DNA of 64,000 nucleotides from contig CAZUIY010000341.1 in assembly GCA_964619975.1 (NCBI GenBank), positions 1,393-65,392 on the forward strand. The letters are read 5' to 3'. The notes beneath the pieces are model-generated. The model worked only from the letters and a program-made list of their open reading frames with translations, was not told where the DNA came from and searched no databases. The DNA is from an uncultured Gemmatimonadales bacterium (GTDB lineage: Bacteria; Gemmatimonadota; Gemmatimonadetes; JACCXV01; JAHWKZ01). Shown here in pieces: positions 3,616 to 44,251 of the stretch; position 1 is the first letter of the stretch; every line of letters begins with the position of its first letter. The translations under genes and the position numbers were made by a program.

Positions 3616-3773
3616 CGGAGCTGATAGACGGACGCAACGGAGCCGGCGCGGTGGTCGACGAGTCCGATGGGGGACTTGAGACCGTCGCGGCGGCCGAGGG
3701 CGGCACGCCCGCGTGGCAACGGTCGGTAGTGGCCTCCGCGCGCCAGCGCGCCGCTACCACGGGAAGGAACTAG
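3129..3773 (+). CDS. probable -1 frameshift extension of the tail assembly chaperone (G-T-like product)
   Basis: Overlapping ORF in the -1 frame whose last about 90 codons (FATSYGWTADRILHGESWADLLALTELIDGR) look protein-like. It ends 11 nt before the tape measure start, the canonical G/G-T arrangement. No slippery site was pinpointed. Confidence 0.3.
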   Translation: MDGRVSEGLGARRGRGHDAAGPAADRGRRPQGGARREPGREGHHGHGRAGAGRAGGRRGGGPGRDRGRVRPSSLPPSDGSPGRQGRGASGDPHAFPGRADGAGDAGPGAGAGPEAAGAVHRIGGEDDVRLAECRVVDRFATSYGWTADRILHGESWADLLALTELIDGRNGAGAVVDESDGGLETVAAAEGGTPAWQRSVVASARQRAATTGRN

Positions 3774-19513: not shown

Positions 19514-20024
19514 CGAAGACGAGCAGGGGACGGCGGCAGAGGAGCGGCCGCTGGACGACGCGGCCTCGATCCAGGATCGCGCCGCCAACGGCGAGCACGA
19601 GCAGGACCCGGAGCCGCCCGAGCCGCCGATGGAGGGCGAGGTGCAGCTGTCGATGAACATCGGCGGCATCGTCTCCAACCGCAACGCGCGGAAGGTGGAG
19701 GAGGCGACGCTGCGCCTGCTGGGCGGCAAGCGGCCGATCGGCGGGCTGCTGGACATCGACACCGAGTACGACCTGATCGTGCGCGTGCTGCCGGACCCGC
19801 CCACGCCGAAGGCGAACCGGGACTCGGCGACGCGCAAGACGCAGTCGTTCGACCTCGACCAGCAGGCGCAGGTGCTGCACATCCGGCGCGCCGACGAGGA
19901 GGCCATCGGCGACCTGTTCGCCGGTCTGCTCGATCGAGACCAGGCGGCGGCGGGCCGTCTGCTGGAGGCCATGACGGCCGCGTTCAAGGACGGCGAGGGG
20001 GCGGGCCTGCGGGCGGCCGCCTAG
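19506..20024 (+). CDS. hypothetical acidic protein
   Basis: 172-aa ORF ending just before a double hairpin. Confidence 0.45.
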   Translation: MADEDEQGTAAEERPLDDAASIQDRAANGEHEQDPEPPEPPMEGEVQLSMNIGGIVSNRNARKVEEATLRLLGGKRPIGGLLDIDTEYDLIVRVLPDPPTPKANRDSATRKTQSFDLDQQAQVLHIRRADEEAIGDLFAGLLDRDQAAAGRLLEAMTAAFKDGEGAGLRAAA

Positions 20025-26900: not shown

Positions 26901-27403
26901 CGCGCCGCGAGGGCCGGGCGCTGCTGGTGGGCGAGTCGCCGTGTCGGGGGGCCAGGCCCGGCGGCCGCGCGCTCGACGGGCCGGCGGGCGATCGGCTGGC
27001 GAGCTACCTCGGCGCGCTTCCCGGCTACATCCACTGCGACAGGCACGCGCTGCTGGAGGAGTTCGACACGGTGAACCTGCTGGGCCGGTGGCCGGGCAGC
27101 CAGGGCAAGGGCGCGGCCTGGTCGCCCACGAAGGCTAGGAGGGCGGCGGGACGACTTCCCCTCCGGGGCGTGGTGGTCCTGCTGGGCCAGCGCGTCGCCA
27201 ACGCCTATCAGCTAGGCGGCCTGTGCTGGGCGCACTGGCTGCATACCCCGGCCGGCGCTTGGGTCACGGCGATTCCCCATCCGTCGGGCGTGAACCGCCT
27301 ATACAACGATGAGGCCATGCGTGCGCTGGTGGCCGAGGTGCTGCACGGCGCGCGCGTCGCCGCCCGGGACGCCCGCCCGCCCGCGCTCGTTCGCCGCAAA
27401 TAG
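26879..27403 (+). CDS. uracil-DNA glycosylase superfamily protein (family 4/5-like)
   Basis: N-terminal GESPCRGARPGGRALDGPAGDRL (compare GEAPG...G.PF.G.AG..L) and C-terminal HPSG motif (IPHPSGVNRLYN). Confidence 0.5.
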   Translation, partial: GVPGRRLTRREGRALLVGESPCRGARPGGRALDGPAGDRLASYLGALPGYIHCDRHALLEEFDTVNLLGRWPGSQGKGAAWSPTKARRAAGRLPLRGVVVLLGQRVANAYQLGGLCWAHWLHTPAGAWVTAIPHPSGVNRLYNDEAMRALVAEVLHGARVAARDARPPALVRRK

Positions 27404-27425
27404 CGGGGCCGTCGGGCATCGTCGT

Positions 27426-27471
27426 TGCGGCGTGCGGGTGGTGGTCTGTAGCCTCGACGCCGTACCCGATT
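27426..27471 (+). promoter_or_regulatory. promoter P2 of the conserved family (-35 TTGCGG, 18-bp spacer, -10 TAGCCT, leader GTACCCGAT)
   Basis: Directly visible; SD GAGGAT, then GTG 27486. Confidence 0.6.
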
Positions 27472-27485
27472 TTGAGGATGGCTCA

Positions 27486-28728
27486 GTGCATGAACTTCCC
27501 AGCCTGCTTACCGGACCGCACGATGCGCGGCTCGACGATCCACCCCGCGTCCTGTCGGTCTGCTCGGGCGTCGGCGGCATGGACCTCGGGTTCCATCGCG
27601 CGGGCTTCCGCACGGTCGGGCTGTGCGAGTGGGAGCCGTGGCGGCGGAAGGTCCTCGCGCGCCACTGGGGCGACGGCGTCCCGATCTATCCCGACCTCGC
27701 GGCGCTCGCCGATCGCGCCGAGCGGGACCCCGACGACCTACTCGCCGAGCTCGGGGGTCGCGTAGATGTCCTCATCGGCGGTACCCCCTGCCAAGACCTC
27801 AGCCACGCCGGCAAGCGAGCCGGACTCGACGGCGAGCGCTCCGGACTCTTCTGGAGTTACTGCCGACTCCGAAACGCCCTCGGCATCGAGTGGTGCGTCT
27901 GGGAGAACGTGGCAGGGGCTCAGACCTCCAACCAGGGACTGGACTTCGCATCGGTCCTGGGCGCCTTCGTGGGAGCAACCGTCGCTGTTCCCTCCGCCGG
28001 ATGGGGAGGCGCTGGTGTGGCAGCCGGGCCGTGGGGGGGCTGCGTCTGGCGACGCCTCAACGCTCAACACTTCGGAGTCCCCCAGCGTCGGCGTCGCGTC
28101 TTCGTTGTCGGACGCCTTGGAGGCCCTTGTCCACCCGCGGTTCTCATTGAGCGCGAAGGCGTGCGCGGGAATCCTCAAGCGGGCGGTGCGGCGCGGCCGG
28201 GACCTGCCTGGGCCGCTGCGGCTCGCGCTGGAGGGCCAGGCCGGACCGAACTGGCAGGAGGTGGACGACCTGGAGGCCGAGATGGCGCTGGAGGCGCTGA
28301 CGCTGGACGTGGACCCGCCCCAGCCATCCGAGCGAGCGCCGGAAAGAACGCCTACAGCCCCGGACACTCCGGAGGCGACGAGGCAGTGTTCGCCGTCGCC
28401 GGAGCCCTCGACGCCAGCGACGGGGGAGCCGACGACAACGACGCCAGAGCCGGACGAATCGTCACAGGTGGCGCCCAGCCTGACGATGAGGTACGGGGCC
28501 AGCGGCGGCAACGATCTTCAACAGCCGAACGCGCTGGTGGAGGACCCGACGATCGGGTTTCACATCCACGAGAGGATGGACGTGCCGAGGGACGACGCGC
28601 AGGCTCCGACGCTGATGAAGTCGGCGAGTCCGGGGGCGAACGCGCCGGGCGGCCTGCGGAAGCTGACTCCGACAGAGTGCGAGCGCCTGATGGGCTGGCC
28701 GGACGGCTGGACGGTGCTGCTGAAGTAG
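27486..28728 (+). CDS. DNA (cytosine-5)-methyltransferase with interrupted reading frame: motifs I-VIII in frame 0, motif IX in frame +1
   Basis: Motif I CSGVGGMDLGF; motif IV GTPCQDLSHAGKR; motif VI ENV; motif VIII FGVPQRRRRVFVVG (all in the frame of 27486). Motif IX RKLTPTECERLMGWPDGWT sits in the +1 frame and ends at the stop at 28728. Candidate shift sites are 28100-28135 or the G4 run at about 28495-28498. Confidence 0.6.
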
Positions 28729-28793
28729 AGGCGTACACGGAGCGAACCCGCGACGGCGTGAGCACTCCCGAGCGGGTGGACCTTCCGTGCCTG

Positions 28794-29387
28794 ATGGGCC
28801 ACACGGGGAAGGGCGGCGGCGGTCACGATCACTTCATTCGTCAGCCCGCTATGCCCGTCAGCCTGCGGGGCCGCGAGGGCGGCGCGACAGCCGAGGTCGC
28901 CGCCGACGACGCCTCGCCGTCACTTCGGGGCAGCGGCGGCGGCGGCAGTCGTCAGCACGTCTTGGTCGGCTCGGACGAGGCTACGCACACGCTGACCGCC
29001 GAGGGCCACGACGCGAGCGAGGACGGCACGGGCCGAGGCGCGCCGATCGTGCTCGCGGAGAACCAGCGCGGCGAGCTCCGCACGCCGGACGTGGTGCCGT
29101 TGCTTAGCGGGCAGGGCGGGGGGAAGCCGGGCCAGGGGCGCCCGGTGACGTGGAGCAATCTGAGCAACGGCGGGGCGAACGACGACCAGGCGGCGACGCT
29201 CGACACGTCGCACGGAGGGGGTCAGGCGCTCATGGCGGGCGCGGCCGAGGGGGCGGCGTGCGGTCATGATCCCAAGCCGGATGGGCAGCGCTACGCGGCG
29301 TGCGGCGATGGGGTGGCGGCCCCGGTCGCGCACTGGATTGGACTGCGCCTCGGGCCGGCGATCGCGGAGGCGCGGAGTGATGGGTGA
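28794..29387 (+). CDS. methyltransferase C-terminal-like fragment (DASEDGTGRG block, ENQRGELR, degenerate motif IX, motif X-like)
   Basis: Frame-0 ORF after the motif-IX stop. Contains HTLTAEGHDASEDGTGRGAPIVLAENQRGELR, GQGGGKPGQGRPV and C-terminal QRYAACGDGVAAPVAHWIGLRL (motif X with GN changed to GD). May be the displaced 3-prime part of the same MTase gene. Confidence 0.4.
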   Translation: MGHTGKGGGGHDHFIRQPAMPVSLRGREGGATAEVAADDASPSLRGSGGGGSRQHVLVGSDEATHTLTAEGHDASEDGTGRGAPIVLAENQRGELRTPDVVPLLSGQGGGKPGQGRPVTWSNLSNGGANDDQAATLDTSHGGGQALMAGAAEGAACGHDPKPDGQRYAACGDGVAAPVAHWIGLRLGPAIAEARSDG

Positions 29388-31946: not shown

Positions 31947-31991
31947 TTGCGCGCGCTCGTAGTTCGCTGTACGCTGGGCGGCGTACCCGAT
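31947..31991 (+). promoter_or_regulatory. promoter P6 (-35 TTGCGC, 17 bp, -10 TACGCT, leader GTACCCGATC)
   Basis: Directly visible; AGGAG SD, then ATG 32007. Confidence 0.6.
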
Positions 31992-35453: not shown

Positions 35454-35498
35454 TTGCGAAGGCTCGTAGTTCCTGCCATACTCCTACTCGTACCCGAT
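35454..35498 (+). promoter_or_regulatory. promoter P9 (-35 TTGCGA, 17 bp, -10 CATACT, leader GTACCCGATC)
   Basis: Directly visible; AGGAGG SD, then ATG 35514. Confidence 0.6.
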
Positions 35499-35513
35499 CA
35501 GCAGGAGGTAGCT

Positions 35514-36178: not shown

Positions 36179-36408
36179 CCTCTGATTGCCGAAGGGTGGT
36201 GGTGGCGTTGCGTCGAGGCCCGGCCATGATGTCGGCGCTGGCGCTGTTCACCGATCTGGCACACACGCGACTCGACAAGGCGATACGAGAGGCGTTGCGC
36301 AAGGACTACGTGGTGACGAACGGCGCGATTCCGCCGGCCTACCTGTTAACGGGCGAGGGCGAGCGACAGGCGCGGGCCAGGCGCGACGAGGTGGTTAGCG
36401 ATGGGTGA
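36175..36408 (+). CDS. small winged-helix-like DNA-binding protein
   Basis: 77 aa; ATGA overlap. Confidence 0.35.
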   Translation: MTSDCRRVVVALRRGPAMMSALALFTDLAHTRLDKAIREALRKDYVVTNGAIPPAYLLTGEGERQARARRDEVVSDG

Positions 36409-37351
36409 CGGCTCCAAGATTGAGTGGACCGAGGCGACGTGGAACCCCGTCACGGGGTGCTCGAAGGTGTCGCCCGGCTGCGCCCACTGCTACGCGGAGG
36501 CGGTGACGGCCAGGTACGCCGGCTCGCCGGGCTGGATCGCGGAGCACCGGCCGTGGACCCCGGAGAACGCCGAGCACAACCTGACGGTTTGGCCCGAGCG
36601 CCTGGATCAGCCGCTGCGGTGGCGGCGGCCGCGCATGGTCTTCGTGAACTCCATGAGCGACCTGTTCCACGAGCTGCTGCCGGAGGAGTTCATCGCCGAC
36701 GTGTTCGCGGTCATGGCGATCGCGAAGCAGCACACGTTCCAAGTCCTGACTAAGCGGCCGGACCGGATGCGCGACGTGCTCAACGATGAATGCTGGCCGC
36801 TGCTGTTGAGCGCCGCCCTGCAAAAGCGCGGTGCCGAGCCGATACCGAACCTCTTTGAGGACGATCGAGTGTCGGTGCTTCCAAACGTGTGGCTCGGCAC
36901 GTCGATCGAGAACCGGCAGTTCACGCAACGCGCCGACGCGCTGCGCGCCGCGCCGGCCGCGGTCAGGTTCATCAGCGCCGAGCCCCTGCTGGGATCGCTA
37001 ATCGCCCCGCCGTGCGATCGCAACTGGTACGGCGAGTGCAAGGGGTGGGTGGAAAACGATGGCTGTCGCAGCTGCCCGCGAACGCAGCGCCAAGCCGGCA
37101 AGAGCGCCGTGCGTCGCGAGCCGACGCCCAGCCTGGACCTGACCGCGATTGATTGGCTGATCGTTGGCGGGGAGTCCGGCAAGGGTCACCGCCCCATGCG
37201 GGTCGAGTGGGCGCGCGACCTTCGCGACGCGGCGGCGCGCGCCGGCACCGCGTTTTTCTTCAAGCAGTGGGGCGGCCACACGCCGACGGCCGGCGGGCGC
37301 GTGCTCGACGGCCGGCTGCACGATGCGATGCCGGAGGGCGCGTCGTCGTGA
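36401..37351 (+). CDS. phage Gp37/Gp68 family protein (DUF5131, three-Cys motif)
   Basis: N-terminal signature KIEWTEATWNPVTGCSKVSPGCAHCYAE and the conserved WLIVGGESG region. Confidence 0.65.
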   Translation: MGDGSKIEWTEATWNPVTGCSKVSPGCAHCYAEAVTARYAGSPGWIAEHRPWTPENAEHNLTVWPERLDQPLRWRRPRMVFVNSMSDLFHELLPEEFIADVFAVMAIAKQHTFQVLTKRPDRMRDVLNDECWPLLLSAALQKRGAEPIPNLFEDDRVSVLPNVWLGTSIENRQFTQRADALRAAPAAVRFISAEPLLGSLIAPPCDRNWYGECKGWVENDGCRSCPRTQRQAGKSAVRREPTPSLDLTAIDWLIVGGESGKGHRPMRVEWARDLRDAAARAGTAFFFKQWGGHTPTAGGRVLDGRLHDAMPEGASS

Positions 37352-38238: not shown

Positions 38239-38514
38239 GTGACGCGCGCCCTGCGGGAGTTCGTGACCGCGCTCGACTGGGCGTGCTGGGAGAACGCCGA
38301 GGAGGGCGGCGACGGGTGGGTGCCGGCGGAGGCCGTGGCCGAGGAGTACGGCGTGACGGTGCCGTGGGCGCGGGTGCGATGCGAGCACCTGGTCCGGCTC
38401 GGCATGGCCGAGCGGCGCCACACGAGGTGGGTCGAGGGCGGGCTTAAGGGCGAGCCGGTGACCGAGTACGCGCCGACGGAGGCCGGCGCGGCGCTGGCGA
38501 ACGGGGGCGGGTGA
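38239..38514 (+). CDS. small winged-helix-like protein
   Basis: 91 codons from a GTG overlapping the upstream stop. Confidence 0.35.
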   Translation: MTRALREFVTALDWACWENAEEGGDGWVPAEAVAEEYGVTVPWARVRCEHLVRLGMAERRHTRWVEGGLKGEPVTEYAPTEAGAALANGGG

Positions 38515-38963
38515 TGGCTCTCAGGCCGGGGCCGGGGCCGGCGTCGGGGGAGCAGGCCGAGGCGATCGAGCGGTTGCGCGCGGACGTGCTGCGTCGCCGC
38601 ATGGAGGGGGCCTCGTGCCGCGAGGTGGCCACCGAGCTGGGGGTGTCGGCCAACACGGTCAGCCGCTGGTCGCGAGGCCACGACCTGCCTCCCCGCCTCG
38701 CGTGGACCCCCGAGGCGATCGTCGCCGCCCTGCGACGGTTTCACGAGGAGTTCGGGAGGACGCCGTCGGCGAGGGAGTGGAATACGACGGTGGCGCGGCG
38801 GCGCCACCCCGACCTGGCGGCTCGGCAGCGGAGCGGCGAGTGGCCGGACACGTCGATCGTCCAGCGCGTCTTCGGCTCGTGGAACGCGGGGATCGAGGCG
38901 GCCGGCTTCACGCCCCGCCCGACCGGCCACAACCGCCGGGCGTCGTCGGGGTTCTTGCTGTGA
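38511..38963 (+). CDS. HTH (sigma region-4-like) protein with homing-endonuclease-associated repeat (HEARO)
   Basis: HTH at CREVATELGVSANTVSRWSRG; HEARO-like WTPEAIVAALRRFHEEFGRTPSAREWN...GEWPDTSIVQRVFGSWNAGIEAAGF. Confidence 0.5.
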   Translation: MMALRPGPGPASGEQAEAIERLRADVLRRRMEGASCREVATELGVSANTVSRWSRGHDLPPRLAWTPEAIVAALRRFHEEFGRTPSAREWNTTVARRRHPDLAARQRSGEWPDTSIVQRVFGSWNAGIEAAGFTPRPTGHNRRASSGFLL

Positions 38964-39280
38964 GGGACGTTCGGCCCACCCCGCCCGACGCTGCCGAGCA
39001 GGTGGCGGCGCTGCCGAGGCGCACCGCCCACGCCGCCCACGCGCTGCTGGCGTGCTGCGCGGACATGCGAGGCCCGGCGAAGGTGAACGAGGTCATCATG
39101 TACGACGCGGAGGCGCTGAGCACGCGCGCCACGGCGGCGGCGCTGAGCGGCGCCAGGCGGGCCAGGCTCGCCGACTACTGGGGGCGCGGCGTGTGGGTGC
39201 CGACGATCCACGCGCACGACCTGCGCGCGGCGCTGGAGGATCGCTTCCTGGCGGATACCGAGCGCGAAGGTGACGGATGA
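38960..39280 (+). CDS. hypothetical protein
   Basis: 106 codons; GTGA overlap. Confidence 0.35.
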   Translation: MRDVRPTPPDAAEQVAALPRRTAHAAHALLACCADMRGPAKVNEVIMYDAEALSTRATAAALSGARRARLADYWGRGVWVPTIHAHDLRAALEDRFLADTEREGDG

Positions 39281-40095
39281 GCGTGGCGGCCATCGCGGAG
39301 CGCGCCACGCGTCGGGACCTCGACGGGCTGGTGCGCGGGGCGTCTCGGCTGGCTCCGAGCCGCGAGGACGCCGAGGACGCGGTGCAGGAGGCGTGGGCGC
39401 AGCTGCTTGAGCGCGAGCGGCGCGGCCACGAGTTCGACGCGGCCGGGCTGGGCCTGGTGGCGCACGGCGCGCGCAGCCGGGCGATCGACGCGCACCGCCG
39501 CCGGGTCGGCCGCGGCGAGCGGTCGCTGGACCGCATGGTCGAGGACGCGGGCGACGCCGGATCCGCGCGCGCGCCCGACGCGCTGCTGGATCAGGTGGAG
39601 GCGCGCCTGGCCCTGCGCGAGCTCGCGGCCGAGGCGCCCGGCGGGCGCGCGGCGCTCAAGCTGGCGCGCAAGCGGCTGGGGGAGTTCGTGCGCTTCGAGC
39701 CGGACGAGGTGGTGGACTCGGTGCGCGGCTTCGTGGAGCGCCACGGCTACGTGCCCACGTGCGAGCAGTTCTGCGCCGACCCGCTCTGTCCGTCGTGGAT
39801 CGTGGTCCACCGCTGCTTTACGAGGTGGTCGGCGCTGATGCGGGAGGCGGGCTACGAGGTCTACGACAAGAGCACGACGGCCGCGCGGCGCGACGACGCG
39901 CTCGTGGCGGAGGTGGCCGCGCTGGCGCGGCGCGAGGGCACCGTGTCGCAGAGGATGCTGCGCGAGAGGATGGGCCTGGGGTGGAAGTGCGCGCGCCGGC
40001 TGGTGGCCAGGCTGGAGGCCGAGGGCGTGGTGGGACCGCATCCCGGCGGCAACGCCCCGAGGAAGTTGCTCGCGCCGGCTTGCGTTTCTTCGTAG
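39277..40095 (+). CDS. fusion protein: ECF-sigma-like N-terminus + HEARO repeat + FtsK-gamma-like winged helix
   Basis: Sigma region-2-like DAEDAVQEAWAQLLE...AIDAHRRRVGRGERSLD. HEARO-like HGYVPTCEQFCADPLCPSWIVVHRCFTRWSALMREAGYEV. C-terminal SQRMLRERMGLGWKCARRLVARLEAEGVVGPHPGGNAPRKLLAP matches FtsK gamma ([40 protein letters not shown]). Confidence 0.55.
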   Translation: MSVAAIAERATRRDLDGLVRGASRLAPSREDAEDAVQEAWAQLLERERRGHEFDAAGLGLVAHGARSRAIDAHRRRVGRGERSLDRMVEDAGDAGSARAPDALLDQVEARLALRELAAEAPGGRAALKLARKRLGEFVRFEPDEVVDSVRGFVERHGYVPTCEQFCADPLCPSWIVVHRCFTRWSALMREAGYEVYDKSTTAARRDDALVAEVAALARREGTVSQRMLRERMGLGWKCARRLVARLEAEGVVGPHPGGNAPRKLLAPACVSS

Positions 40096-40123
40096 TTCCT
40101 GTATTATGAGGAACGTACCCGAT
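40080..40123 (+). promoter_or_regulatory. promoter P10 (-35 TTGCGT, 16 bp, -10 TATTAT, leader GTACCCGATC)
   Basis: Directly visible; AGGAG SD, then GTG 40139. Confidence 0.6.
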
Positions 40124-40138
40124 CGCAGGAGCCGCAAA

Positions 40139-41173: not shown

Positions 41174-41493
41174 TGGCGATCGCCAACGGCGCGCCCGCCA
41201 GGACCTACGCGCTGGTGAAGGTCGCGGCGGGCGACTGGCTGCTGCCGTCGAACGACGCGCGCACGCTGTGGCGGTTGCAGCGCTACGAGGACGGCCCCTC
41301 GCACGGGCTGGACCCCGAGGTGTTTCCGACCGACTTCGAGGCGTGGCAGCTCTGGCGGTACAAGCGGCCGCTCGCCGCCGCGCTCTGGCGCGAGGACGTG
41401 GAGGACTGGGATCAGTGGACGCTGGTGGCCACGAACCTTGAGACGCGCGGCGAGGCGATCGATGAGGCCATGCGGATCGGGGAAGGGTCGTGA
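41170..41493 (+). CDS. hypothetical protein
   Basis: 107 aa. Confidence 0.4.
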   Translation: MMAIANGAPARTYALVKVAAGDWLLPSNDARTLWRLQRYEDGPSHGLDPEVFPTDFEAWQLWRYKRPLAAALWREDVEDWDQWTLVATNLETRGEAIDEAMRIGEGS

Positions 41494-41924
41494 ACGCGCG
41501 GGAGCCGCGCGCCACGGTGGGTCCGCCGGCCGAGCGGCCGTGCGGCTCGTGCCCGTACCGGCGCGACGTGCCGAGCGGCGTGTGGACCGAGGACGAGTAC
41601 GCGAAGCTCCCGCGCTACGACGCCGAGACGGGCGACCAGCCGACGGCGATGTTCGCGTGCCACCGCGACGACGGGCGGGCGTGCGCCGGGTGGGTGGCCA
41701 CGCACGACATGGACGGGTGCCTCGCGCTGCGGCTGGCGACGGTGCGGGGCGACGTGGACCCGCGCCCGTTCCTCGACTACCGGACGACGGTGGCCACGTG
41801 GCGCTCGGGCGCGGAGGCGGCCGCGCACGGGCTGCGCGACGTGCTGAGCCCGGGACCGGCCGCGCGCCGGCTGATCGAGAAGCTGGGCACGCGCGGCGGA
41901 CTCGGTCGAAGGGAGAGGACCTGA
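41490..41924 (+). CDS. hypothetical Cys-containing protein
   Basis: 144 aa; CGSCPYRRD ... CHRDDGRAC motif. Confidence 0.4.
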   Translation: MNAREPRATVGPPAERPCGSCPYRRDVPSGVWTEDEYAKLPRYDAETGDQPTAMFACHRDDGRACAGWVATHDMDGCLALRLATVRGDVDPRPFLDYRTTVATWRSGAEAAAHGLRDVLSPGPAARRLIEKLGTRGGLGRRERT

Positions 41925-43968: not shown

Positions 43969-44230
43969 CCACGCGCGGGACCCCGGTGGCCGCGAGGCGG
44001 CGATGGTCGAGGCGTACCCCGGCGCGTGGTGCGATCCGTGCATCGCGCCGCTCGTGCGGGCGCTGAACGAGTGCGAGGCGCTGCCGGCGACGCCGTCGCG
44101 GCTGAACCCGGCCGGGGTGCGGACCGTGGCGTCGTGCTGCGGCCACGGCGAGCGGCCGGGCCGCGTGTCGCTGGCGGACGGGCGCGAGCTGATGATCTAC
44201 CCCGACCTTGCGAGCAGTCCTAGTTCCTAG
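43958..44230 (+). CDS. small hypothetical protein (3-prime end contains the -35 of P11)
   Basis: 90 aa. Confidence 0.35.
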   Translation: MVCDHARDPGGREAAMVEAYPGAWCDPCIAPLVRALNECEALPATPSRLNPAGVRTVASCCGHGERPGRVSLADGRELMIYPDLASSPSS

Positions 44231-44251
44231 TACGATGTAGGAGTACCCGAT
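44208..44251 (+). promoter_or_regulatory. promoter P11 (-35 TTGCGA, 17 bp, -10 TACGAT, leader GTACCCGATC)
   Basis: Directly visible. The downstream leader+SD (GTACCCGATCGCAGGAGCCGCAAAGTG) is identical to that of P10. Confidence 0.6.

Follow-up and report, generated by a model that had tools for sequence, protein, structure and literature searches.

Within a 64,000-nt stretch of contig CAZUIY010000341.1 (the window, to which coordinates refer unless stated otherwise), the open reading frame (ORF) at 39277-40095 on the plus strand encodes a protein of 272 amino acids (aa), in which a sigma region-2-like domain of the extracytoplasmic function (ECF) type is followed by a linker, an HNH_repeat, and an FtsK-gamma winged helix. 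The surrounding DNA is that of a phage. Its GC content is approximately 72% throughout, and a gene map based on codon-position GC placed essentially all genes on the plus strand, tightly packed and with many overlaps between stop and start codons. Recognizable genes encode a lysin amidase, RecT, a PD-(D/E)XK nuclease, an exonuclease, and proteins of DUF5131 and DUF6283, while the right end of the window carries an HNH endonuclease gene and the start of a large terminase gene. The phage lineage appears to be uncharacterized: neither the DNA of the region nor 4 proteins of the window (including the 272-aa protein, the product of a 433-aa ORF among the tail genes, and that of a 723-aa ORF) had a match among 50,697 deposited phage genomes, and several large ORFs of the window that were tested gave no Pfam family.

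The ORF at 39277-40095 is clearly a real coding gene, as its codon-position GC (0.78/0.54/0.95, with a GC3 of 0.95) is typical of coding sequence at such GC content. Its ATG overlaps the stop codon of the preceding ORF (ATGA), with the ribosome-binding site GAAGGTGA ahead of it, and it is the final gene of an operon that starts at a promoter-like element near 35454.

Residues 1-81 (39277-39519, +) form a three-helix domain resembling region 2 of ECF sigma factors, as judged by Pfam, a family profile, hhalign, AlphaFold2, and Foldseek. The first-pass annotation of this DNA had placed a sigma region 2 in the N-terminus, and the searches bore this out. Residues 15-52 matched Sigma70_r2 (E=1e-4, 22.4 bits), and a profile of the N-terminal family, built from 14 proteins with no bona fide sigma factor among them, found 11 matches in the PDB, all of which were ECF sigma factors. 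The best of these was SigE of Mycobacterium tuberculosis (E=5.4e-5), with an alignment that extended from region 2 into the linker between sigma-2 and sigma-4; the others were SigH/E, SigR, RpoE, SigJ, and SigW. Likewise, hhalign matched the family to a real ECF sigma factor with a probability of 97.5 (E=8e-12), aligning both the sigma-2 domain and the helix-turn-helix (HTH) of the family, the latter with sigma-4.2. Two AlphaFold2 models were made, one of the full-length protein, from an alignment covering the N-terminal and gamma domains, and one of residues 1-200 together with the family, because MAFFT had placed the HTH or linker of the relatives onto the gamma domain and their repeats into insertions. 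In the 1-200 model, residues 1-80 reached predicted local distance difference test (pLDDT) values of 82-96. When this model was compared with the PDB by Foldseek, nearly all of the top matches were initiation-complex chains of ECF sigma factors. The nearest cellular sequence was an ECF sigma factor of Brevibacterium (40% identity over residues 3-91), the C-terminal tail of which presumably resembles, from our own reading of its sequence, the SnoaL-type extension of ECF41/SigJ sigma factors.

The best-conserved stretch of the family is the region 2.2 motif DAEDAVQEAW (residues 31-40; 39367-39396, +), which pairs with DAEDLTQETF of M. tuberculosis SigE. In this motif, A32, E33, and A39 never vary among the 14 aligned members, and D31 and A35 are found in at least 90% of them. 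The D-x-x-Q-E residues of region 2.2 contact the beta-prime clamp helices in ECF sigma factors. Beyond 5 residues of the motif (D31, A32, E33, A35, and A39), conservation in the family is strongest at S83 and L84 of the linker and in the core of the HNH_repeat. Conservation of region 2.2 and the linker is the pattern expected if docking onto the polymerase is under selection.

The linker itself (residues 82-139; 39520-39693, +) is acidic and consists, from the alignments and the models, of an SLD motif (S83, L84) followed by 2 helices of low confidence (pLDDT 44-65). It occupies the place of the sigma2-sigma4 linker and region 4.1. In ECF sigma factors, the region 4.2 HTH of sigma-4 reads the -35 element and contacts the beta flap. 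Families Sigma70_r4 and Sigma70_r4_2 and the ECF families of Pfam gave no match to the protein even at E<=10, and in the hhalign alignment its row is gapped exactly at the sigma-4.2-like HTH of its relatives. The region-4 signature claimed in the first-pass annotation is thus absent from these searches; the sequence quoted for it, AIDAHRRRVGRGERSLD, is the end of region 2.4 and the start of the linker. At the level of sequence, these comparisons show that the protein is a homolog of an ECF sigma-2 domain and linker that has lost the sigma-4 HTH.

Residues 140-196 (39694-39864, +) form a small helical domain, an HNH_repeat (PF18780, homing-endonuclease-associated repeat). While the Pfam match on residues 143-194 stayed under the cut-off (E=0.06), a family-derived hidden Markov model (HMM) matched the repeat at E=9e-22, its signature aligned with that of the repeat in a neighboring gene and with the family, and dozens of HNH_repeat proteins matched residues 140-196 in an exhaustive search of 1.84 billion representative proteins. 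Residues 141-195 were modeled with a pLDDT of 92-96. The repeat had originally been described as HEARO-type; the repeat stands, while the name does not, as HEARO is, we take it, the name of an RNA motif rather than of protein repeat PF18780. Rfam families gave no match in the window. No nuclease domain, HNH or other, was found in the protein by Pfam and PHROGs scans. Matches to Symfoil, a designed beta-trefoil, in a first PDB search were discarded as summed sub-threshold repeat matches.

The C-terminal domain (residues 205-266; 39889-40074, +) is an FtsK-gamma-type winged helix. Pfam FtsK_gamma matched residues 206-266 with 35.8 bits (cut-off 30.6), so that the domain, previously seen in the last 45 aa, was confirmed in kind and extended to approximately 61 aa. 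A profile of this domain matched the FtsK gamma structures 2ve8, 2j5o, and 2j5p at E~1e-20, and the modeled domain superposed on 2j5p and 2ve9, the top Foldseek matches, with a root-mean-square deviation (rmsd) of 1.5-2 Å and a template modeling (TM) score of 0.77-0.84. Alignment to FtsK gamma of Escherichia coli and Pseudomonas aeruginosa placed the predicted DNA-recognition helix, GWKCARRLVARLE, at residues 235-247 (39979-40017, +), where it is more basic than that of FtsK. FtsK reads the FtsK-orienting polar sequence (KOPS) with R1300, E1303, and E1306 (PMC2680272). Of these positions, R241 and E247 are kept in the phage protein, and E1303 is replaced by A244; in addition, adjoining positions of the helix carry Lys (for N1296), Cys (for R1297), and Arg. 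Because a KOPS-reading residue is replaced and the neighboring helix positions have changed, the specificity probably differs from KOPS. As a separate observation, the 66-aa protein Ap3 (PDB 9sgv) matched residues 210-260 about as well as FtsK gamma did (E=0.004).

Profile searches, by which the first-pass annotation had proposed that its reading be judged, therefore returned significant FtsK-gamma similarity and family-level sigma similarity, and together with the models they uphold both the relation to sigma factors and the division into 3 segments.

Related proteins and the neighboring gene

The exhaustive HMMER search yielded 198 matches, which fell into 3 disjoint classes covering residues ~8-122, ~140-200, and ~200-268. 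Only the 272-aa protein joins the N-terminal domain or the repeat with a gamma domain; the suggestion that this combination is without precedent thus holds among these 198 matches. The N-terminal class consists mostly of proteins of 280-330 aa with the order sigma-2-like domain, acidic linker (SLD...D...APVELAV...), HTH, and 1 to 3 HNH_repeats. Its members align with the phage protein over the N-terminal domain, the SLD linker motif, and the first HNH_repeat with 24-37% identity (phmmer gave E-values between 1e-15 and 1e-8, with only the small hit set as its database).

Throughout the family, the N-terminal domain and linker stay the same, and what differs is the set of DNA-binding modules at the C-terminus: there are members with an HTH and 2 repeats, with 2 or 3 repeats and no HTH, with an N-terminally placed repeat, and, in the window, with a repeat and a gamma domain, the latter standing where other members have a second repeat. 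The HTH of the relatives sits at the sigma-4.2 position of a real ECF sigma factor. Other members without a sigma-4-like HTH are P0017, P0042, P0158, P0160, and the protein of locus L008. As hhalign aligns both the sigma-2 domain and the HTH to a real ECF sigma factor, the family is, from its sequences, best described as ECF sigma factors with a C-terminal extension of HNH_repeats, some of which lack the sigma-4-like HTH. This sigma2-linker-[sigma4-like HTH]-HNH_repeat(s) family was previously undescribed and carries no name.

Family members are encoded by mobile DNA of high-GC bacteria, namely phage contigs from metagenomes and a single integrated element of Actinomycetota. The phage contigs of loci L003 to L008 carry Baseplate_J, GpA terminase, PDDEXK, RusA, or DUF5131, and on 5 phage contigs the family genes lie among early, non-structural, small genes on the same strand. 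Locus L001, with a tyrosinase gene as neighbor, is ambiguous as a phage or mobile-element locus. Two family members, too, were without a match in the deposited-phage collection. The phages of L003, L006, and L008 are related to one another, and the window phage shares with them only the 272-aa protein and the module of its neighbor. L003, L006, and L008 also have a conserved partner gene downstream, which was set aside as a reflection of overall phage kinship and is not present in the window. In locus L011 (8396-15768 of that locus), from a metagenome-assembled genome of Actinomycetota, the member (Sigma70_r2 at 29.4 bits, plus HNH_repeat) is the sole plus-strand gene in a minus-strand run that includes a phage-type integrase adjoining it, a 5-hydroxymethyldeoxyuridine (5-hmdU) DNA kinase, and a metallophosphoesterase, with an ordinary ECF sigma factor 2.4 kb away. 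The locus has the look of an integrated element that carries genes for DNA hypermodification.

Two positions upstream of the gene lies another encoding 150 aa (38511-38963, +), with an HTH_23, an HNH_repeat, and weak similarity to Sigma70_r4_2 and ECF families, as seen with Pfam, hhalign, and blastp. That the repeat recurs in this neighbor had been noted before and proved correct (HNH_repeat, E=2.5e-11); these 2 ORFs are the only ones in the window with an HNH_repeat. The neighbor aligned with columns 142-251 of the family, which hold the HTH and HNH_repeat (hhalign probability 98.8, E=1.3e-16), and with the member of L003 at 33% identity over 138 aa (blastp). It corresponds to the module of full-length members that the 272-aa protein lacks, and in this phage the full architecture of the family is therefore spread over 2 genes, split by an ORF of 106 aa (38960-39280, +) that has no family assignment and whose stop codon overlaps the start codon of the 272-aa protein. 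Near the members without sigma-4 in L005 and L008, a separate HTH-HNH_repeat gene was not found within the DNA examined, so that the idea of a split sigma factor is a lead from this one phage and not a general rule. The neighborhood is flanked by genes for DUF5131 (36401-37351, E=5.5e-88) and DUF6283 (41490-41924, E=2.6e-30), of which DUF5131 also occurs on the phage contig of L005, which bears a family member.

Promoter-like elements of the window

The sequence GTACCCGA occurs in 20 copies between 23926 and 60081 of the window (e.g., at 35490, 40115, 44243, 54628, and 58992), all on the coding strand and mostly intergenic. Aligned, these copies give the consensus TTGCG-N17-(G)TAGCCT-N7-GTACCCGATC-N2-8-GGAGG-start. 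The 10-mer GTACCCGATC had 26 matches with at most 1 mismatch, against 3.45 expected. It is better conserved than either hexamer: it is nearly invariant, as are the T, the A, and the final T of the -10 element, and a -35 element is recognizable in about twelve to fourteen of the 20 copies. We take the hexamer pair TTGCG/TANNNT to be of the type read by actinobacterial housekeeping sigma factors, which would put the 10-mer at approximately +1 to +10, at or next to the start of transcription. With a 10-mer so conserved at that place, every transcript would start with nearly the same 10 or so nucleotides. Judged by sequence, the 20 copies resemble housekeeping promoters, and every promoter-like element observed in the window is of this one class, also the 2 that precede the packaging genes (58992 and 60072).

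One element with its leader, TTGCGA-N17-CATACT-N7-GTACCCGATC (35454-35499, +), heads the operon of the 272-aa protein. The next, TTGCGT-N16-TATTAT-N7-GTACCCGATC (40080-40124, +), overlaps the last codons of its gene and the TAG stop codon (40093-40095). These 2 and the promoter at 44243 have in common a spacer, C(G/C)TAGTTCCT(G/A), at 35467-35474, 40093-40100, and 44221-44228 on the plus strand, and so form an CGTAGTTCCTG spacer sub-class; a variant lies near 31961 and a reverse copy at 3765-3772. With at most 1 mismatch, TAGTTCCT was found 20 times, against 7.9 expected. The shared spacer may be an operator for this sub-class of promoters.

Candidate roles and known systems

We favor, tentatively and at a little short of an even chance, a role as a sigma-like adaptor, with the N-terminus on the core of the host RNA polymerase and the C-terminal modules targeting DNA, so that the polymerase is redirected. 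In such a mechanism, extrapolated from domain homology, the sigma-2 domain and linker would sit on the beta-prime clamp helices of the core, just as they do in ECF holoenzymes. The variable C-terminal modules would bind double-stranded DNA in a sequence-specific manner, replacing sigma-4 in targeting. Host polymerase would thereby be recruited or redirected to particular sites on the phage DNA in the early-to-middle phase. The missing sigma-4-like half may be supplied by the HTH-HNH_repeat protein encoded 2 genes upstream, acting together with the 272-aa protein. The sigma-2 domain of the latter may or may not still melt a -10 element. The gamma domain supports an adaptor, being an established DNA-binding fold with an intact and basic recognition helix. 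Divergence is common among phage sigma factors, which may have core domains replaced or sigma-2 alone retained (PMC7826278).

Several observations weigh against such an adaptor. The Sigma70_r2 score is borderline, below the cut-off of 24 bits; relatives exceed this cut-off (24.3, 27.4, 28.8, and 29.4 bits). The Foldseek matches to sigma factors were weak (E 0.2-2.6), with a large whole-chain rmsd. In regions 2.3 and 2.4, where SigE reads GWLHRITTN and the phage protein GLGLVAHGARSRA, the conserved Trp is replaced by Leu or Val, as in most relatives, and the ECF-typical Asn by Arg, so that promoter melting may be lost; a few relatives retain W/Y or ARN at these positions. A DNA-binding role of the HNH_repeat is assumed from its associations. 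Canonical ECF promoters (GGAACN{15,18}CGTY) occurred twice in the window, against 5.35 expected, both on the minus, non-coding strand; motifs of a non-canonical kind may be present. A comparison of 9-mers shared among motif-free intergenic gaps gave no second motif, and no second promoter class was found in the 64 kb; approximately 8 kb of the 72,337-bp contig lie outside the window.

A more specific form of the adaptor, which we consider unlikely, makes the protein the polymerase-docking half of a sigma factor in which sigma-4 has been swapped out, possibly split over 2 genes, with the HNH_repeat and gamma domain reading a positioning element, to which the nearby HTH-HNH_repeat protein may add its part. 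If true, it would be the first case of a sigma family that uses homing-endonuclease-type repeats and the fold of a KOPS reader to recognize an upstream element, with a reading head swapped modularly between phages.

The loss of the aromatic melting residue and of the Asn of region 2.4, along with the presence of 2 DNA-binding modules, would also suit a plain regulator or architectural protein that binds DNA sequence-specifically, for instance a repressor, a partition protein, or a packaging accessory, in which the sigma-2-like fold is an inherited scaffold or an oligomerization domain and has given up its contact with the polymerase. Phage FtsK-gamma domains do occur alone or fused to the small terminase, in a role described as unknown (PMC8190038), and the integrase beside the L011 member marks a position typical of regulators. 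However, the residues conserved best in the family belong to the sigma-type linker and the region 2.2 motif, not to a hydrophobic dimer interface, and a linker of this kind has no obvious role in a simple repressor; we regard a regulator of this kind as rather doubtful. An anti-sigma-like role, also raised in the first-pass annotation, or that of a competitor is possible. Here, the protein would be a host shut-off factor that competes for the sigma-2 and linker sites of the core, its C-terminal modules either holding the captured enzyme on DNA or playing an accessory part. Conserved docking determinants, degenerate features for promoter melting, and the absence of a cognate promoter class in the window are in line with this. 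Yet the phage appears to rely on host-type promoters across the window, so that a general competitor would harm the phage as well unless it were selective, and the conserved sequence-specific DNA-binding modules favor targeting over sequestration, which makes a shut-off factor quite unlikely.

Both specific functions that had been proposed earlier fared worse. One was that the protein reads the promoter and leader family. It would then be a dedicated sigma factor or specificity subunit whose sigma-2 domain would read the TAGCCT -10 element and whose winged helix or repeat would read the 10-mer. The motif family is real and abundant, the protein has 2 DNA-binding modules to spare, and a copy of the element directly abuts its gene. 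Against this, the -35/-10 pair presumably fits the consensus of actinobacterial housekeeping promoters and not that of ECF promoters, and the 10-mer lies on the downstream side of the -10 element; no sigma domain, sigma-4 included, is known to bind there. A substitute for sigma-4 would bind upstream, which does not fit the 10-mer. Moreover, the gene is itself driven by such a promoter, mid-genome: as it lies in that operon, the promoter at 35454 must fire before the protein exists. With a single promoter class throughout the window, the host polymerase must read at least the first copies unaided. The motif family was also absent from 7 loci of relatives, where we found a lone GTACCCGA on the minus strand. 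We therefore consider a sigma factor dedicated to these promoters very unlikely; a regulatory contact with the 10-mer is possible, while the window lends no support to a link with the promoter family. The other proposal, that the protein guides a DNA translocase (FtsK-like or terminase) by reading oriented octamers on the phage genome, comes close to being negligible. The gamma domain is genuine, and its fusion to a small terminase subunit has a precedent (PMC8190038), but the protein has no FtsK_SpoIIIE motor domain in Pfam, and the window encodes no Walker-A ATPase fit to be an FtsK-like motor. Nor is KOPS, GGGNAGGG, enriched in the window (12 found, 15.6 expected), and the KOPS-reading E1303 is replaced. 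Octamers enriched on one strand, which had been named as candidate targets, are uninformative, since with genes all on one strand their skew is dominated by codon usage. Finally, the gene lies approximately 20 kb away from the packaging genes.

Compared with ECF (group 4) sigma factors, such as SigE and SigH of M. tuberculosis and those of the ECF41/SigJ type, the protein shares a homologous sigma-2 domain, the DAEDxxQExW/F motif of region 2.2, and the linker. It differs from them in the loss of sigma-4, in the changed Trp of region 2.3 and Asn of region 2.4, and in the addition of 2 unrelated DNA-binding domains. ECF sigma factors often have autoregulatory promoters resembling GGAAC-N16-17-CGT, whereas the promoter of this operon is of the TTGCG/TANNNT type. 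With FtsK/SpoIIIE gamma, the protein shares the winged-helix fold and sequence family, but not the translocase motor. It falls outside the ECF sigma factors for want of sigma-4 and outside FtsK for want of the motor, but it may still work like a sigma factor. Reuse of gamma outside a translocase is seen in the small terminase of the Bacillus phages Sam46 and Sam112, where its partner is Terminase_2 instead of sigma-2 and an HNH_repeat (PMC8190038).

Sigma factors with other solutions for sigma-4 offer parallels in layout. The late sigma factor of phage T4, gp55, is highly divergent, has only a region-2-like part, and relies on the co-activator gp33 and the sliding clamp gp45 for the part of sigma-4. 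It is the classic sigma-2-only phage sigma factor (PMC2988020, PMC7892883), and is likened here by layout, not by sequence; gp55 has no fused DNA-binding domains, and its targeting goes via the DNA-loaded clamp. In the SigO-RsoA system of Bacillus subtilis, sigma functions are split over 2 adjacent genes (cited in PMC7826278). The split over 2 genes is alike in the window phage, where the pairing of the proteins would be analogous, while gene order and the extra domains differ. SigI-type sigma factors of Clostridium thermocellum (8i23, 8i24) carry, behind their sigma-2 domain, a non-canonical C-terminal domain in place of sigma-4; their chains appeared at ranks 10 and 15 of the Foldseek list as weak matches (E 1.9-3.9), and the C-terminal domain is unrelated. 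None of gp55, SigI-type sigma factors, and SigO-RsoA has HNH_repeats or an FtsK-gamma fold, and the paper on the reclassification of ECF sigma factors makes no mention of either.

As sigma factors are defined by sigma-2 and sigma-4 acting jointly, natural proteins with sigma-2 and linker retained but unrelated DNA readers in place of sigma-4 would reveal the extent to which promoter recognition tolerates re-engineering. Within the family there are natural modular variants (with an HTH, with repeats only, or with a repeat and gamma) that are open to direct comparison. It would also give a first functional handle on 2 poorly understood phage modules, the HNH_repeat (PF18780), named in one paper of the literature searched, and the stand-alone FtsK-gamma. 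It also marks an actinobacterial phage group without detectable relatives among the deposited genomes. If the sigma-2 fold were a mere scaffold, the finding would shrink to an unusual DNA-binding protein.

Further features of the window

The 177-nt gap between the lysin and RecT genes (15776-15980) marks the switch from lysin and tail genes to genes for recombination and replication. It contains an inverted copy of the leader, GATCGGGTAC, on the minus strand (15884-15893), and a near-copy, GTACCCGGTC, lies at 15971, just within the RecT ORF. ARAGORN reported a tRNA-like structure with an undetermined two-base anticodon at 19797-19868 (-), on the non-coding strand inside a plus-strand gene, which is probably spurious. 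Within the ORF at 27309-29387, at approximately 27483-28728, motifs of a cytosine-5 DNA methyltransferase (CSGVGGMDLGF and GTPCQDLS) were identified by eye from the sequence. The gene caller, which relied on GC3, passed over most of this stretch, and a promoter copy, GTACCCGATT, precedes it at 27462.

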